In this document: positions 2,968 through 19,190 of the stretch, in pieces
Layout of the letters: each line of letters starts with the position of its first letter
Position numbering within the stretch: the first letter of the stretch is position 1
Source of the DNA: a virus
Lineage: Duplodnaviria; Caudoviricetes
Virus record (IMG/VR): IMGVR_UViG_3300027787_000005
Location: 1-45,265 of that record
Strand: one strand, 5' to 3'
Length of the DNA: 45,265 bases
Made by a program: the position numbers and the translations under genes
The notes under the pieces: model-generated
Told to the model about the DNA's origin: nothing
Seen by the model: only the letters and a program-made list of their open reading frames with translations
Databases searched by the model: none

Positions 2968-3284
2968 CGGCAGACCTCCGCGTGTTCGTCGGCGCGCCGG
3001 TTCAGCTCGGCAAGGGCGAAGGGCTCGTCGCCGTCGATCTCGACGATCCAGTCGCAGCGGTTGCAGCTGAGTTGGATCACGGAGTTGCCGCCGAAGAGCG
3101 CGACGGACCCGACCCTGAACCGCTGCCGCTCTTCGGCCACCGCCTTGAGTCGGCGCAGCTCGATCAGCTCGTCACGCAGGACGTTGAGTGCCGCTGCCGT
3201 GAGGTTGGGGGGCAGCATCCAGGTGCGGATCATGTCGCCTGCCGCGTACGGCCCGCCGTTGATGATCTGGTCTTCGAGGTCCAC
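2964..3284 (-). CDS. Hypothetical protein with C-terminal CxxC...H motif
   Basis: ORF track; operon-coupled. Confidence 0.6.
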   Translation of the reverse strand: MDLEDQIINGGPYAAGDMIRTWMLPPNLTAAALNVLRDELIELRRLKAVAEERQRFRVGSVALFGGNSVIQLSCNRCDWIVEIDGDEPFALAELNRRADEHAEVCR

Positions 3285-3285
3285 G

Positions 3286-3849
3286 TCAGATCACCGTCCC
3301 GTGGCGTGGGCATGCCCAGCCCGGCGGGCGGCTGGCGGTGCCGTTCTTCGGCTTGTCGACGGTGGGCGGCGGGTCGTTGCAGATGCAGCCGGGCCCGAGC
3401 GACGGCGGCGCGGTGCGGCGTGGCACCGGTGGACGCGACCGGACCGGTGGCGTCCAGCCCATGACGCGCAGCACCTGGATGACGGCGAGCGCGGTGTGGG
3501 TCTCGATGCCGGGTCGTGCGGCGTTGACCTTCCGTGCCGCTTCCCGATCCCCTGAGATCGTTTCTGCGGCCTTGGAGCCGTCAGGGGCAGACACGGGTAC
3601 CCCTGGGCCTAGATCGGGCGTCCTGAGCGAAAGGGAAGCCCTTACCTGAGCCTCGCTGTGCTCGATCGCCTCAGCCCAACGCGCGCTGTCGCCGTTGAGC
3701 AGCGCGCAGATCCGCTCGGCCAGCGCCTGGTCCCCGTTGACGACCACGGCGACGAGCTCGGCCGGGCCGGTGATGTGGCCTTCGGGGGTGCGCTCGCCCT
3801 CGCGGACGATGGTGACGCCCCAGTGGTTGCCGGTGCGGTACGTGGTCAC
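3286..3849 (-). CDS. Hypothetical protein
   Basis: GTG start after AAGGAG; YRTGNHWGVTIVREG. Confidence 0.55.
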   Translation of the reverse strand: MTTYRTGNHWGVTIVREGERTPEGHITGPAELVAVVVNGDQALAERICALLNGDSARWAEAIEHSEAQVRASLSLRTPDLGPGVPVSAPDGSKAAETISGDREAARKVNAARPGIETHTALAVIQVLRVMGWTPPVRSRPPVPRRTAPPSLGPGCICNDPPPTVDKPKNGTASRPPGWACPRHGTVI

Positions 3850-5268: not shown

Positions 5269-6050
5269 GCAGTCACTCCTCGGCTGGTGCGGCGCTCGGC
5301 GGCGCGACAGGACAGGCAGACGGCCTCTCCGGTTGACGGGTGCGGCATCGACCCGCCGGGCATCCGGTGTTCGCACTCGGGTCCGCGCTTGATCGCGGTC
5401 CAGGCGGACTCGACTTCACGGAGCCGGGCGGCAGCCCGGTGCTCGGTGAGGTGTTGGGCTAGGTCCCCGTCAGCGGCCATCCGCCGAAGGAAGCCAACGA
5501 GGTTCCGGGGGGCCCGCTCGTTGCGGATCCGCTTGATGATTGCGACGGCTTCGTCGGCCGTCGCACCGGTGGCTTCGGCGACGATCTGCTCGGGTCCCGG
5601 CACAGCGGCTTGGAAAGAAGTATTGGAATGGTCTTGGTAGTGGGCACGTGGTGCCCTAGCCCGGGGCATCTCCTGCCCTAGCTCTGGGGCATCAGGTTCC
5701 CTAGGCAGGGCATCAGGTTCCCTAGCCTCTAGGGCACGACGTGCCCTAGCCGGAACGCCCAAACGGTACGCAGTCCGCTCCTTCTCGGAGCGCGCTTTCT
5801 CGACCGTGGGTCGGCTCCTGTGGACCCAGCCGTCTTGCCCTGGGGTCTTCTCCACGGCGTTCAGGTGGTTCATGACAGCGCGCCGGGACAACCCCGTCGC
5901 CTCGGCCAGCTTCGTCAGCGAGGGGCTGTACTTGGCCGGCACGGCGCCGCCCGGCCAGTTCGCGATGACGGCCAGCACCAACAGGACATGCCGGGCTGGG
6001 GGTGCGAGGTCCGAAGCGAGCACGGCACGCTCGAACTCCCAGCGCTTCAT
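5265..6050 (-). CDS. Replication initiator (lambda O-like organisation, N-terminal winged HTH)
   Basis: PSLTKLAEATGLSRRAVMNHL HTH; internal iterons; C-terminal C/H zinc motif. Confidence 0.7.
   Translation of the reverse strand: MKRWEFERAVLASDLAPPARHVLLVLAVIANWPGGAVPAKYSPSLTKLAEATGLSRRAVMNHLNAVEKTPGQDGWVHRSRPTVEKARSEKERTAYRLGVPARARRALEAREPDALPREPDAPELGQEMPRARAPRAHYQDHSNTSFQAAVPGPEQIVAEATGATADEAVAIIKRIRNERAPRNLVGFLRRMAADGDLAQHLTEHRAAARLREVESAWTAIKRGPECEHRMPGGSMPHPSTGEAVCLSCRAAERRTSRGVTA
5642..5750. repeat. Five 19-bp iterons, putative replication origin
   Basis: GGGCA-N5-T(G/T)CCCTAG(C/G) at 5642, 5664, 5687, 5708 and 5732 (21-24 bp spacing), next to an AT-richer tract at 5610-5640. Confidence 0.75.
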
Positions 6051-6718: not shown

Positions 6719-7558
6719 TCAGGCGGCTCCCTTCTCGCCCGGAAGGTCGAACAGCGTCGGGTGCAGGTTCAGCGGCCGGTTCGACCACAGCACCTCGGTA
6801 CGGTTCGCCCACCCGTCGCCCTGCCCGGTGCCGGCGGCGAACGTATGCCGGTCCCATCCGGCGTAGAGCTCACGGTCGTACAGGTCGGACGCGTAGCCGG
6901 AGAGCACGACCGCGGCCCGGGCGCTGTTCAAAGCGTCGGCCAGGGCTCGATGGTCAGCCTCGCCGCGCATCTCGCACTGATAGCCGTCGTAGGACTTGCT
7001 GCGGGTTGAGCCGAGGTACGGCGGATCGACGTAGAGCAGCACGCCCGGCTCGGCGCCGTACTTGGCGATTACCTCGAGCGCTGGCATCGACTCCAGCGAG
7101 ACCGCGGCGAGCCGCTCGGCCGCGGGCGCTATCCGCTCGACGTAGCCGGCGAGGTAGTCGGGCATCGACGTGGCGGCGCCGCTGGTCTTGACGTAGTGCC
7201 GCCATCCGGTGCGCCGCAAAGCGCCGGCGCGGCCTTGGGTGAGCCGGACGAACACGCGACGCGCGGTCTCCAGATCGGTGCCGGCCGGCTCGTACGCCTC
7301 CTGCTGCTCCGCCCTCGAGTGCGGCGTAAGTACGCAGACTCGGGCCAGCTCGTCGGGTTGCTCGCGCAGAACGCGCCAGAAGGTCATGAGCTGACCGTCT
7401 AGGTCGTTGACGGTCTCGTGGTCGGATACCGACTTGGCCAGCAGCACGGCAAGGCTGCCGCAGTACGGCTCGACGTAGTGATCGTGCTGCGGAAACAACG
7501 CGGCGATGGCCGGGGCCAGCATGATCTTCCCGCCGAAGTACGACATGGGCGGCTTCAC
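6719..7558 (-). CDS. DNA adenine methyltransferase (Dam/D12 class)
   Basis: YFGGK, YVEPYCGSLAV, ETVNDLD and YVDPPY motifs. Confidence 0.92.
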   Translation of the reverse strand: MKPPMSYFGGKIMLAPAIAALFPQHDHYVEPYCGSLAVLLAKSVSDHETVNDLDGQLMTFWRVLREQPDELARVCVLTPHSRAEQQEAYEPAGTDLETARRVFVRLTQGRAGALRRTGWRHYVKTSGAATSMPDYLAGYVERIAPAAERLAAVSLESMPALEVIAKYGAEPGVLLYVDPPYLGSTRSKSYDGYQCEMRGEADHRALADALNSARAAVVLSGYASDLYDRELYAGWDRHTFAAGTGQGDGWANRTEVLWSNRPLNLHPTLFDLPGEKGAA

Positions 7559-7767
7559 CGTTCGTCTCCGTTCTCGTGTTCGTAGCGGCTGGCCACCAGC
7601 GCCTGTTCCGGCACGTCCGGGAGGGTGTGGCGGGGGTCGCCGGGCTCGCCGAGCAGGTGGCAGGTGAGGCAGACGCCGCGGGTCTCGATGTCCTTCGGAT
7701 GTGGCGCCAGGTCCGGGTCGGGCACGAACAGGTGCGGCTTCACCTGGGACGGCGGCTGCTTGGTCAT
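7555..7767 (-). CDS. Hypothetical protein
   Basis: MTKQPPSQVKPHLF...CLTC..PGDPRH; overlap-coupled. Confidence 0.55.
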   Translation of the reverse strand: MTKQPPSQVKPHLFVPDPDLAPHPKDIETRGVCLTCHLLGEPGDPRHTLPDVPEQALVASRYEHENGDER

Positions 7768-8864
7768 GACGTCGCCGCTCGGACGATCGCGGCGGCGAGC
7801 CGCGGCGGGACGGCGTTGCCGACCTGGAGGAACTGGGCGGTCTTGTTGCCCTGCCACGGGTAGTCGGCGGGGAACGACTGGAGGATGGCTGCCTCGGCGA
7901 CGGCGATGCGGATCGACTGGTCGTGCTGTCGCTCGCCGCCGGCACGGTCGCGGTGGCCGGGTGCGGCGATCCGGGGATCGCCGGCAAGAGTGGTGGCGGG
8001 CCTGCCGTGCACCCATGCCGGCTTACCTTGACTAGTCAGAGTTGGTGCTGGCCGGTCTGCTGCCACCAGGGCAACGGGAACACGGGAGCCGCGCGGGCCG
8101 CGGCCGATGGTGCGCCGGTCTAGCGTCCAGCCCGTGGCGTAGCTGTTGCCTTGTCCGTACGCCCACCGCGGCGACCGGTCGCCGCAGACGGTTCGTGCCG
8201 GCCGGTCGATCCCTTCCCAGCCGAGCGCGTCGGCCATCGACACCCATGGCAGGAGCTCTCCACCGAACAGGTCAGCGCCCTCGGGGTGCTGGGCGTGTGT
8301 TGGTGCCGGCGGGTGGACAGGCTTGTCCAGCCGAGCCATCAGCACGGCCCGCTCGCGGGTCTGTGGAACCCCGTAGTCGGCGGAGTTGAGAACGCCGGTC
8401 CAGGTGGAATAGCCCCAGCGACGCAGGGCGTCCGAGGCGTGCTGCCACAGGCCGAGCACCGGCGGAACCTGCTCGAAGCAGACCCAGGTCGGGCGGAAGT
8501 CCCGGACCCAGCGGACCGGCTGGGCGGCATGGTGGGAGCGGTCGTCGGCCCATCCGTCACCGATGTCGTCGCGGCCGGCGGCGTAGGCGTTGATGAGGTG
8601 GTGAGCCTTGGTCCGGTCCTGCTCCCCGGCGCGCTTGCCGGCCATCGACCACGCCTGGCACGGCGGGGACGCGACGAGCCCGCGGATCGGAGTGCCAGGC
8701 CGGATCGGCGAGCGGGAGACATCGGCGCGGATCCGGGTGTGGCCGGCGGCCTTGGCGGTGGCGCAGGCGCTCGGTTCCCACTCGACGCCGATAACGTCGG
8801 TGATGCCGATCTGGCGCATCCCCTCATCCCAGCCGCCAGGGCCAGCGTAAAGGTCGAGGATCAC
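7764..8864 (-). CDS. DNA cytosine-C5 methyltransferase
   Basis: DLYAGPGG (motif I), SPPCQ (IV), EQV (VI), YGVPQTRER (VIII), QVGNAVPP (X); could start at GTG 9011. Confidence 0.92.
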   Translation of the reverse strand: MILDLYAGPGGWDEGMRQIGITDVIGVEWEPSACATAKAAGHTRIRADVSRSPIRPGTPIRGLVASPPCQAWSMAGKRAGEQDRTKAHHLINAYAAGRDDIGDGWADDRSHHAAQPVRWVRDFRPTWVCFEQVPPVLGLWQHASDALRRWGYSTWTGVLNSADYGVPQTRERAVLMARLDKPVHPPAPTHAQHPEGADLFGGELLPWVSMADALGWEGIDRPARTVCGDRSPRWAYGQGNSYATGWTLDRRTIGRGPRGSRVPVALVAADRPAPTLTSQGKPAWVHGRPATTLAGDPRIAAPGHRDRAGGERQHDQSIRIAVAEAAILQSFPADYPWQGNKTAQFLQVGNAVPPRLAAAIVRAATS

Positions 8865-9003
8865 CGGGCGCCTCGCCGCTTGCGCCAGGTGGCCCAACCG
8901 TGCCGGGCGAGGGCGTACGGCATCAGCAGGATCACCAGCGGCAGCATGTCGCCGCAGGACCGGCCGAGCGGGTGGCGCCTGTTCCCCCTCGCGGTTGCTG
9001 CGT

Positions 9004-9156
9004 TCAGTCACGGTCGGCTCCTTTCTTGCGTGCGGCCTGTAGCCGCCGTTTGCGCTCGGGGCGCGTCAGCGCCAGGTATTCGGTGAGCGGGAGGCCGAGC
9101 AGGTCGGCGTTGGCTTGGCGCCGTACGGCGTCCCGGGCCTGCTTGCGGGCGCTCAT
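9004..9156 (-). CDS. Small basic hypothetical protein
   Basis: MSARKQARDAVRRQ...; ATGA overlap. Confidence 0.5.
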   Translation of the reverse strand: MSARKQARDAVRRQANADLLGLPLTEYLALTRPERKRRLQAARKKGADRD

Positions 9157-16931: not shown

Positions 16932-17374
16932 GGCCGGCCCTCGGCGTTGCGCCTGATCGCGGCGGCGACCTGCTTGGCGAACGCGGCCGGGTCCATCGCC
17001 GACGGGCCGACGAAGCTGACCTCGACGGCCGAGCCGACCGGCGGCAGCGGCAGGGCGACGATCCGGCCGAGCTTGCGCTGCACGAGATGCAGCTGCGCGA
17101 TGACTTCGCCGAGCAGCAGGTTGTGCACGAGGACGTCCTCGGCCAGCGCAGGCCAGGCCATGACGGTCGGCTCCGACGCCGGATCCACGTCGCGCCGGAG
17201 CACGGCCTCGGCCTGAGCGATCAGGCGCTCGGCGTCGCGGATGACCTCACCGAGGCGGGGCAGGTTTGCGCCCGGGCCGACCGGCGGCGTAACCGCAGCG
17301 TCGGACGGCCCGGGAGTATCAATGCGGCCGGGACCGGTCGGGCCGGTCGGGTGGCCGGGCGGATGCGTGGTCAT
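16928..17374 (-). CDS. Hypothetical protein with Pro/Gly-rich N-terminus
   Basis: ATGA overlap with the RAMP gene stop. Confidence 0.55.
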   Translation of the reverse strand: MTTHPPGHPTGPTGPGRIDTPGPSDAAVTPPVGPGANLPRLGEVIRDAERLIAQAEAVLRRDVDPASEPTVMAWPALAEDVLVHNLLLGEVIAQLHLVQRKLGRIVALPLPPVGSAVEVSFVGPSAMDPAAFAKQVAAAIRRNAEGRP

Positions 17375-18039
17375 GCGGCCCGGTCCCAGCGGGTGACTTC
17401 GTACCGGCCGTAGCCCTGGGAGCGCGAGGCACCGATGCCCTGCTGCTCGCCGGACGTCCAGATCGCGGCCCACTCCTTCTCGCTGAAGTCGTGGTCGGCC
17501 ATGACCGTGAAGTCGACCTTCGCGTCGGTGACGTACTCCTCGTACTGGATGCCACTGCCCCGGAAGGTGTGCACGAAGCGCTGGTTGATGCCGCTGGCCT
17601 CGGTGACGCCGAGGTGGAGCCGGTCCTCGATGACGAAGACGTGCTCGGCGAGGTAGGACAGCAGGCCCTTGTTGGTCTTGCCCCAGCCCCGGCCGTTGAG
17701 CTTCCCGGCGGCGACGGCGCAGGACGCGGCTTCCTTCAGGGCGGCCTTGAGCTGACGGCCCTCGATGTACAGGCCCAACTCGTCGCGCTTGAAGCCGTTG
17801 AGGTGCTTGTTCATGGCCACCTGCTCGGCGGCCTCGTCGGCGCTGACGCCTCGGTCGACCATGGTCTCGGCGACCATCTGCCGTACGAGGTCATCGGTCG
17901 CGCCGAGCTTGGTGCGGATCCAGGACTCGGCCACGTTGGCGTCCGTGGGTGTGCCGCCCGCGATGGTGCCGACGAGCAGCTGGCCGCTGAATCTGTACGG
18001 AAACATCTCCGCTTGATGCTTGGCGAACACGCTGGCCAT
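17371..18039 (-). CDS. Stand-alone RAMP superfamily protein, Cas7/Csm3-like
   Basis: N-terminal beta strand + TIAGG; FKRDELGLYIEGRQLKAALKEAA resembles the Csm3 PxIPGSSLKGxxR helix; C-terminal Gly-rich loop GIGASRSQGYGRYEV; AGGAG RBS. Confidence 0.8.
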   Translation of the reverse strand: MASVFAKHQAEMFPYRFSGQLLVGTIAGGTPTDANVAESWIRTKLGATDDLVRQMVAETMVDRGVSADEAAEQVAMNKHLNGFKRDELGLYIEGRQLKAALKEAASCAVAAGKLNGRGWGKTNKGLLSYLAEHVFVIEDRLHLGVTEASGINQRFVHTFRGSGIQYEEYVTDAKVDFTVMADHDFSEKEWAAIWTSGEQQGIGASRSQGYGRYEVTRWDRAA

Positions 18040-18052
18040 TCGAATCTCCTAG

Positions 18053-18345
18053 GTCAGTCGATGAGGGCTGTGACGGCACGGGATGGGCGGGAAAGTCGGA
18101 CTGAGGTGGGAGGGGTGGCCGCCGGGATGGGTAGTCGGTCCGGGGCGTGGTGGGTGGTGGCGGGATGGGTAGTCGGGAGGGCCTGGCTTGGGCCGTGTTG
18201 GCATTGGGTCGGGAAGTCGGGTCCGAGTGGGGTCGACTGGTTTTGGGCGGGGTAGTCGGGTCGGGCCGGGCTGGGCAGTGGTGGATTGGCGCGCGTCGGG
18301 TAGTCGGTACGGCGAGGGCCGGGAAGGCGGGAGTCGGGTAGTCGG
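18053..18345. repeat. Non-coding array of 7 units (38-48 bp) built from G-led pentamers; putative guide-RNA locus
   Basis: AGTCG anchors at 18056, 18094, 18133, 18171, 18215, 18254, 18302 and 18340; minus-strand consensus head CCGACTACCC; fills the gap between the 195-aa gene stop and the RAMP RBS. Confidence 0.85.
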
Positions 18346-18933
18346 CTAGACGGCCACGAGCGGCGTCTGCTTGGCGGTGAGCGAGTCCCACATCGTCGAG
18401 AGCTGCTGCTCGGTGTAGTGCTCGATGACGGTCCGGTCGCCGACCTTCCTGGCGATCGCCTTGAGGAACGCAGCGGTGAGCAGGGCGTCTCTGGCGCGCT
18501 CGGTGTAGGCCTCGCCCACGAACAGCAGGTCACCCCGGGACATGTCGGCAAGCTGCCTGCGGGAGCCATCGGCGATCGTGAACCGCGACGACAGCCAGCG
18601 GCCCATCTGCGCAGCGCGACGCTGCTGTGGACTGTCGGCCGCCCATCCGTCGGCAGCGAAGCCGGAGTTGACCTGCTCCATGGCCTTCGCCTCCATGGCG
18701 AACGCGGAGCGCGGGGCGGAGTAGCGGGCGCTCGTACGCTGCGACCGATCCCGGGCGTTCACCGCTTCGCGGAGGATGGCTTCCGCCTGCGCGTCCAGCC
18801 ATCCGGCCAGCAGCTCAGGGTCTTCCGTCCGGAGCTTCTCGGCGATCTTGCGGGCGACGTTGGACGGCGTGTACGAGCCGGTGGCCTCGGCGTTGATGAG
18901 TTCGCGCATCTCGCCGACGTAGTCGCGGCTCAT
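18346..18933 (-). CDS. Hypothetical helical protein (195 aa), candidate accessory of the RAMP/array module
   Basis: ATGA-coupled to cro; its stop codon abuts the first array repeat. Confidence 0.7.
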   Translation of the reverse strand: MSRDYVGEMRELINAEATGSYTPSNVARKIAEKLRTEDPELLAGWLDAQAEAILREAVNARDRSQRTSARYSAPRSAFAMEAKAMEQVNSGFAADGWAADSPQQRRAAQMGRWLSSRFTIADGSRRQLADMSRGDLLFVGEAYTERARDALLTAAFLKAIARKVGDRTVIEHYTEQQLSTMWDSLTAKQTPLVAV

Positions 18934-19190
18934 GCGGCACCGGCCGAGAGCGCGGAGGGGGCGGAGAGGAAGCGGTCGACCGGGACGCCGAAGGCGGCGG
19001 CCAGCTTGTCCAGCTCGTCGGTGTCGAACGGGAACTTGCCGTTGAGCCGGCGGCTAACGCTGGGCTGGGCGATCTCAAGGATCCGAGACAACTCAAGCTG
19101 CGTCACGTTCTGGCGAGCAACCTCAGCCCTGACCTCAGCCGCGACCCGCTGGGTGAGAGACTGAGAGATCCCGGTGGGTGTCTCTGTCAT
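18930..19190 (-). CDS. Cro-like XRE HTH regulator
   Basis: VTQLELSRILEIAQPSVSRRLNGKFPFDTDELDKLAAAFGV; first gene of the early operon, divergent from the repressor. Confidence 0.85.
   Translation of the reverse strand: MTETPTGISQSLTQRVAAEVRAEVARQNVTQLELSRILEIAQPSVSRRLNGKFPFDTDELDKLAAAFGVPVDRFLSAPSALSAGAA

Follow-up and report, generated by a model that had tools for sequence, protein, structure and literature searches.

A phage-borne RAMP gene beside a pentamer array: a locus probably of the VIPR kind, with likely C-rich guides

Can a single RAMP protein and an adjoining array of five-nucleotide repeats make up an RNA-guided system in a virus and, if so, which strand of the array is the guide and what does it read? 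These questions are raised by a locus in a stretch of viral DNA of 45,265 nucleotides (the window; IMG/VR record IMGVR_UViG_3300027787_000005), which a first-pass annotation had put forward as a candidate RNA-guided system lacking CRISPR machinery. The virus record is rated as complete. Because it carries an integrase, two divergent XRE genes, RecE/RecT, terminase, portal and tape measure genes, we class the phage, by its gene content, as temperate; its GC content of 70% and the relatives of its portal suggest that it is probably a phage of an actinomycete. Elsewhere in the window, two DNA methyltransferase genes lie in tandem in the early region (6722-9011), and a 45-nt tandem repeat within a replication initiator-like gene (5642-5751) probably represents origin iterons. 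The locus itself lies directly after the leftward XRE gene, in the minus-strand order HTH gene, 195-aa gene, array and RAMP gene, with the following features.

18930-19190, minus strand: XRE-type HTH gene at the head of the leftward operon, overlapping the start of the accessory gene (context)
18346-18933, minus strand: candidate accessory gene (vap-like), 195 aa, mostly helical
18306-18343, minus strand: putative guide unit 1, 38 nt, 7 NN pairs
18258-18305, minus strand: putative guide unit 2, 48 nt, 9 NN pairs
18219-18257, minus strand: putative guide unit 3, 39 nt, 7 NN pairs, one extra base
18175-18218, minus strand: putative guide unit 4, 44 nt, 8 NN pairs, one extra base
18137-18174, minus strand: putative guide unit 5, 38 nt, 7 NN pairs
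18098-18136, minus strand: putative guide unit 6, 39 nt, 7 NN pairs, one extra base
18060-18097, minus strand: putative guide unit 7, 38 nt, 7 NN pairs
18052-18059, minus strand: terminal GAC boundary motif, the end of the array just ahead of the ribosome site
18046-18050, minus strand: AGGAG ribosome binding site for the RAMP gene, read from the sequence
17371-18039, minus strand: Vipr-like single-RRM RAMP, 222 aa, predicted; G-loop GIGASRSQGYG, R206 invariant, D33 conserved

A RAMP gene and its array

The 222-aa open reading frame with the two motifs quoted in the first-pass annotation was present, and its ribosome site does abut the array, which fills 18052-18345, i.e., from the stop codon of the upstream gene through to the AGGAG. 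A scan for sigma-70-like promoters, which fits actinomycetes poorly, found none between 16500 and 19500. The absence of CRISPR machinery was borne out: within the record there was no match to Cas1 or to a Pfam RAMP family, no cas match by PADLOC over 58 ORFs, no CRISPR-like repeat family and no Rfam match. This viral locus is thus minimal and lacks both the CRISPR array and the cas genes that together mark CRISPR-Cas types III and VII.

Pfam, PHROGs and PADLOC gave no name to the RAMP or to the accessory protein, and a sequence search of the PDB with the RAMP returned only matches to the G-loop (E 0.4). Its AlphaFold (AF2) model (pLDDT 78.8) gave 51 Foldseek matches at E <= 0.001, with Csm and type VII complexes at the top; the best solved structures were type VII Cas7 (Z 11.2, rmsd 2.8, 132 residues aligned) and Csm3. 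On this model the protein has a predicted Cas7/Csm3-like RAMP fold with an RRM core, a thumb and a G-loop, as the first-pass annotation had proposed. RAMP homologues numbered 1643 out of 1949 candidates. The statement that no Asp is evident at the Csm3 catalytic position was not confirmed: D33, in a GGTPTD loop after the first strand, is Asp in 45/45 close homologues; among 69 distant homologues it is Asp in 51 and Asn in 12. This conserved Asp may be a candidate equivalent of the catalytic Asp of Csm3.

We also compared the RAMP with Vipr of Escherichia phage SUSP1, which we located by its GGY runs, these lying on the vipr strand; nine residue numbers given in the passages of the structure paper used here were confirmed, and the tenth, T175, is Val in the sequence record used. 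A profile of 69 RAMP sequences matched SUSP1 Vipr at E 0.0013 over 127 columns with a probability of 18%, a weak match that makes the residue mapping uncertain. In this weak alignment the SUSP1 guanine readers D177, W178 and R138 fall on A204, S205 and E167, while R179 of the third-position pocket falls on R206, an Arg kept in 69/69 homologues. It likewise places K82, described as an essential clamp on the non-target strand (10.64898/2026.04.26.720927), on S106.

The array consists of seven units of 38, 48, 39, 44, 38, 39 and 38 nt, and no other part of the window equals it in G skew or in GG period-5 score. Runs of six C spaced 5 nt apart occur 25 times, against 6.0±3.6 in 5000 shuffles (one of which reaches 25), and the boundary motif 6 times, against 0.03 (no shuffle in 5000 reaches 6). 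Read on the RAMP-gene strand, a unit has the form GAC-NN-CCC-NN-(nYC-NN)n-nCC, or in short form GAC-NN-(nYC-NN)n. In 120 units of length 5n+3 that were picked by the boundary motif alone, C accounts for 89-97% of the letters at triplet position 3, and C or T for most of those at position 2, whereas position 1 is loose and the NN letters are near uniform. Unit spacings are 5n+3 or 5n+4 in 153 of 211 cases. Unit 1 has 13/14 NN letters in common with a unit in a related phage (G014), which we attribute to descent.

Arrays recur beside related genes. Among distinct homologous RAMP genes with enough flanking sequence, the window included, 34/47 have an array within 3.5 kb, rising to 12/13 at 70% identity or more; this supports a conserved adjacency, the check proposed in the first-pass annotation, and no array was detected near the other 13/47. 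Four homologues at 53-60% identity without a detected array within 3.5 kb (L027, L031, L044 and L051) are possibly orphan effectors, or have arrays of another triplet. Some arrays are very long, with 24-45 parsed units and up to 1.9 kb (L120, 6067-7859; L126, 7604-9417; L083). One cultured phage, Microcystis phage Mae-JY09 (L062, PP395641), has a 34%-identical RAMP with a GAC-reset, C-rich array downstream (3235-3752), and would be a ready experimental source; its high GC is a poor fit to the named host.

The accessory gene upstream of the array has a homologue in 44 of the records searched, and one homologue is named from Micromonospora tulbaghiae. In fold comparisons its product gave only weak matches, of winged-helix-like type (Z at most 5.5), and no likeness to SUSP1 vap1 was detectable. 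At several loci (L074, L080, L082, L084 and L093) the GAC of the first unit overlaps the TGA stop of the upstream gene, in several cases as ATGAC, an arrangement in which translation could continue into the array.

Targets of the guides of related phages

The VIPR systems published in 2026 are described as skipping one target base between pairs, in line with the wobble position (10.64898/2026.04.26.720920, 10.64898/2026.04.26.720927). Under such a one-base skip the NN string of a unit corresponds to codon positions 1 and 2 of a target gene, with the wobble bases left out. The first-pass annotation had suggested competing phages among the targets; this received support from the guides of relatives, and for none of the seven guides in the window did we find a target.

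When guides were compared with 97 vipr genes, which are over-represented in the search database by construction, 6 of 792 guide variants matched at least three sites in antisense register, against 0.3±0.6 in shuffles. Four of the six are credible units and one is a duplicate variant; the sixth, a guide of 5 pairs, may have matched by chance. Units adjoining the ribosome site target vipr in 3/31 cases (L087 in G009, L157 and L163), compared with 3/466 other units. The last array unit before vipr in G009 (L087) matches that phage's own gene at 14/14, and may provide self-limiting feedback. Among other targets, a motif of terminase, which we take to be Walker A, was matched 16/16 by one guide, in two phages.

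Related units of three phages decode to HELGH[LI]V[LIM]H. One such guide pattern, when scanned, found about 150 viral stretches, where window patterns of the same length found 5 and 6, and HELGHLVL occurred in 55 of the 120 stretches listed out of these. All five HELGH-type stretches tested matched PF06114, four of them above the cut-off; ImmA/IrrE proteases act as anti-repressors. An unrelated 11-pair guide gave a 21/22 match to a second ImmA motif, ANEFAAEFLMP, present in 54 such genes, for which a generous estimate of the chance expectation is 0.004. The NN pair after GAC, omitted from the first searches and later included, fits the next codon in 5/6 cases, and its inclusion added DUF6582 as a target. 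With this pair included and 2383 phage ORFs as the search set, homologous sites in at least two phages were matched in the antisense codon-1,2 register by 6 of 583 units, whereas 8 shuffles gave 0-2; in the sense register no unit of the 583 converged on homologous sites.

In all, eight independent guides have an identified target (vipr for four, ImmA for two lineages, terminase for one and DUF6582 for one), and every one is antisense to its target gene. By these matches the guides of relatives follow the one-base-skip code, and what appears to be new here is that they spell conserved codons of an ImmA/IrrE protease, a terminase, DUF6582 and other vipr genes. The decoded targets indicate what temperate actinophages contend over, namely anti-repressors of the ImmA type, terminase and the vipr genes of one another. 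Units common to different phages also decode, antisense, to a GLS[AT]K-x-[IM]-K-H-like peptide (L074, L112 and L167) and to an IVDEAY[HQ]-like peptide (L157 and L175), the latter presumably resembling a helicase Walker B motif.

The NN composition of 361 units favors codon positions 1 and 2, with 0.42 for sense, 0.40 for antisense and <=0.01 for other registers. Near-match counts showed no excess over shuffles. For exact matches there was an excess at skip 1 only in 7-pair guides (7 versus 3.3±1.7, of 126), the contribution elsewhere coming from one long guide, and none at skips 0, 2 or 3. Within-guide coherence was not register-specific. When the order of pairs was tested, skip 1 showed no signal (z 0.6 and -0.1), and z was 2.5-2.9 for skips 0 (sense) and 3, values for which we have no explanation.

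As to the window's own guides, units 3, 5 and 6 were checked locally only. Unit 2 had 5 and 6 exact viral matches without plausible convergence, and 3/49 records lay within two mismatches. For unit 7 there was no convergence among the 120 matches listed of about 160, and unit 1 had one match in 401 actinomycete genomes, against five control matches. No site within the window was closer than two mismatches to any unit. Unit 4 had about 1000 and about 170 matches, and the groups among the 120 listed from each were low-GC phages; unit 1 matched a vipr motif only weakly, at 10/12.

Guide strand and mode of action

Both strands of the array were scanned. The C-rich strand is that of the RAMP gene in 62/65 arrays, that of the upstream gene in 44/47 and that of the downstream gene in 49/52, counts that are not independent because the arrays come from related phages. 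In G044, where the RAMP gene is on the opposite strand or distant, the C-rich strand follows the upstream gene in both arrays for which such a gene was called. Since the C-rich strand follows the operon, the G-rich antisense strand on which the first-pass annotation had placed the pattern is probably not the RNA. Public runs were searched for one holding RNA, and none was listed. Because the C-rich strand is co-oriented with the RAMP gene and, in the weak alignment, the guanine-reading residues of SUSP1 are not kept, we infer that this strand, made within the early mRNA, is likely to be the guide.

The reading that we prefer, and consider probable with considerable room for doubt, is that the RAMP coats C-rich units with one protomer per pentamer, and that the NN pairs then read duplex DNA, skipping the wobble base, to silence genes of rival phages. 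By analogy with SUSP1 VIPR, each protomer would bury the triplet of its pentamer, the third-position pyrimidine pocket (R206) being retained and the guanine readers lost. The guide would be the C-rich strand of the phage's early mRNA, and at each GAC a phase shift of 3-4 nt would end one filament and start the next; the RNA may also be cut there, as the first-pass annotation had supposed for its units. The NN pairs, including that right after GAC, would pair with double-stranded DNA, every third target base being skipped, so that synonymous changes would give no escape. The bound filament would block transcription of rival-phage genes such as the ImmA/IrrE anti-repressor, terminase and a rival vipr.

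DNA targeting on either strand does not predict that all targets should be antisense, and this conflicts with the even sense and antisense composition of the NN pairs; targeting of mRNA therefore has to be weighed. In that case the same protein and C-rich guide would pair with codon positions 1 and 2 of the message, blocking translation or cutting the RNA via D33. All 8/8 independent guides are complementary to the coding strand and none is in the sense register, D33 is conserved, the K82 clamp of SUSP1 aligns to S106, and SUSP1 VIPR is reported to be able to form an RNA-RNA duplex (10.64898/2026.04.26.720927). Against this, the composition suggests about as many sense as antisense guides, the targets belong to only four gene families (a chance of 1 in 16), K82 is placed by a weak alignment, and the published VIPRs, in the texts compared, act on DNA. 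We regard mRNA targeting as unlikely, and rate just as low its boldest form, a mirror-code branch of VIPR in actinophages in which C-rich guides from early mRNA would read codon positions 1 and 2 of catalytic motifs in rival mRNAs, possibly with cutting by D33. If true, such a system would read amino-acid sequence by means of RNA guides and would connect Vipr with RNA-targeting Csm3. The antisense bias offers a direct and cheap test of DNA versus RNA.

That the guide is instead the G-rich antisense strand (GRN/NN, near NNNGG/NNNNG), made from a promoter inside the RAMP gene of a VIPR of published type, seems to us improbable. Repeats of the NNNGG and NNNNG types and staggered arrays are listed for VIPR (10.64898/2026.04.26.720920), and matching to double-stranded targets cannot distinguish the strands; such a guide would run against the orientation of the upstream gene at most arrays, both of those in G044 included, would meet a protein in which the guanine-reading residues are not kept, and is itself predicted to form G-quadruplexes. 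We consider it very improbable that the array acts in cis, be it as a binding site for autoregulation in the leader of the RAMP gene, as G-quadruplex DNA or as a proline-rich ORF, because, although the array stands directly before the ribosome site at many loci and open frames cross it, unit lengths are evenly spread modulo 3 (73, 73 and 65 of 211), the NN pairs are variable and spell conserved protein motifs, and arrays also lie downstream of the RAMP gene or far from it.

Should the guide be the C-rich strand, VIPR coding would not depend on guanines: the letters of the scaffold and the residues that read them would have changed in step, with the skip rule left as it was. Programmable silencing in high-GC actinomycetes would also gain a second, compact scaffold, with guides of 38-48 nt that come naturally multiplexed.

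Comparison with known systems

With the Cas7-group RAMPs of CRISPR systems (Csm3, type VII Cas7 and Cmr4) the protein has its predicted fold and G-loop in common, whereas CRISPR array, Cas6, Cas10 and Cas1 are absent here, and pairing would be gapped where theirs is contiguous. The closer likeness is to VIPR, gene-silencing systems described in 2026 (10.64898/2026.04.26.720920, 10.64898/2026.04.26.720927), whose type II, one of seven types, is represented by Escherichia phage SUSP1 and a Pseudomonas fulva prophage (10.64898/2026.04.26.720920, 10.64898/2026.04.26.720927). The first-pass annotation had pointed to this resemblance, and it stands: like type II VIPR, the locus has a lone phage-borne RAMP, an accessory gene and 5-nt repeats of a fixed triplet with variable NN, and the guides of relatives add the wobble-aligned one-base skip and targets in rival elements. 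Guides that target vipr have also been reported for VIPR (10.64898/2026.10.15.759431).

It differs from type II in several respects. The triplet is nYC on the gene strand instead of GGY; units have 7-9 pairs (5-12 in relatives) instead of 9-16 repeats; they are contiguous and GAC-reset with no structured tail seen, where those of type II have a conserved 3' tail; and the G-loop reads ASR in place of the DWR of SUSP1 Vipr. The set of features that marks type II (GGY on the vipr strand, 9-16 repeats per guide and a conserved 3' tail) is thus absent here.

Consensus repeats NNNGG, YNNNG and NNNNG and staggered arrays are also listed for VIPR (10.64898/2026.04.26.720920, figures S17-S18), and the present array resembles the staggered ones in that contiguous guides are mutually out of phase and the triplet is degenerate. 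The nYC/NN of the gene strand is absent from the consensuses listed there, and the opposite strand loosely fits NNNGG/NNNNG. The text of that paper names no C-rich or GAC-reset type; this comparison being one of text, the clade may equal a listed type read on the other strand. Our literature search found no paper describing C-rich VIPR guides, though figures and supplements may hold such a description. Non-canonical VIPR-like clusters, named in the text as GAC/NN, CAC/NN, WGT/NN and TGH/NN (10.64898/2026.10.21.760802), have likewise a Vipr-like fold beside period-5 arrays with non-GGY triplets; unlike the present analysis, their text gives no targets or strand tests in the passages compared. 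By these analogies the locus appears to be a system of the VIPR kind, a kind already published, that is not of the type II, GGY form and is likely to be a C-rich variant.
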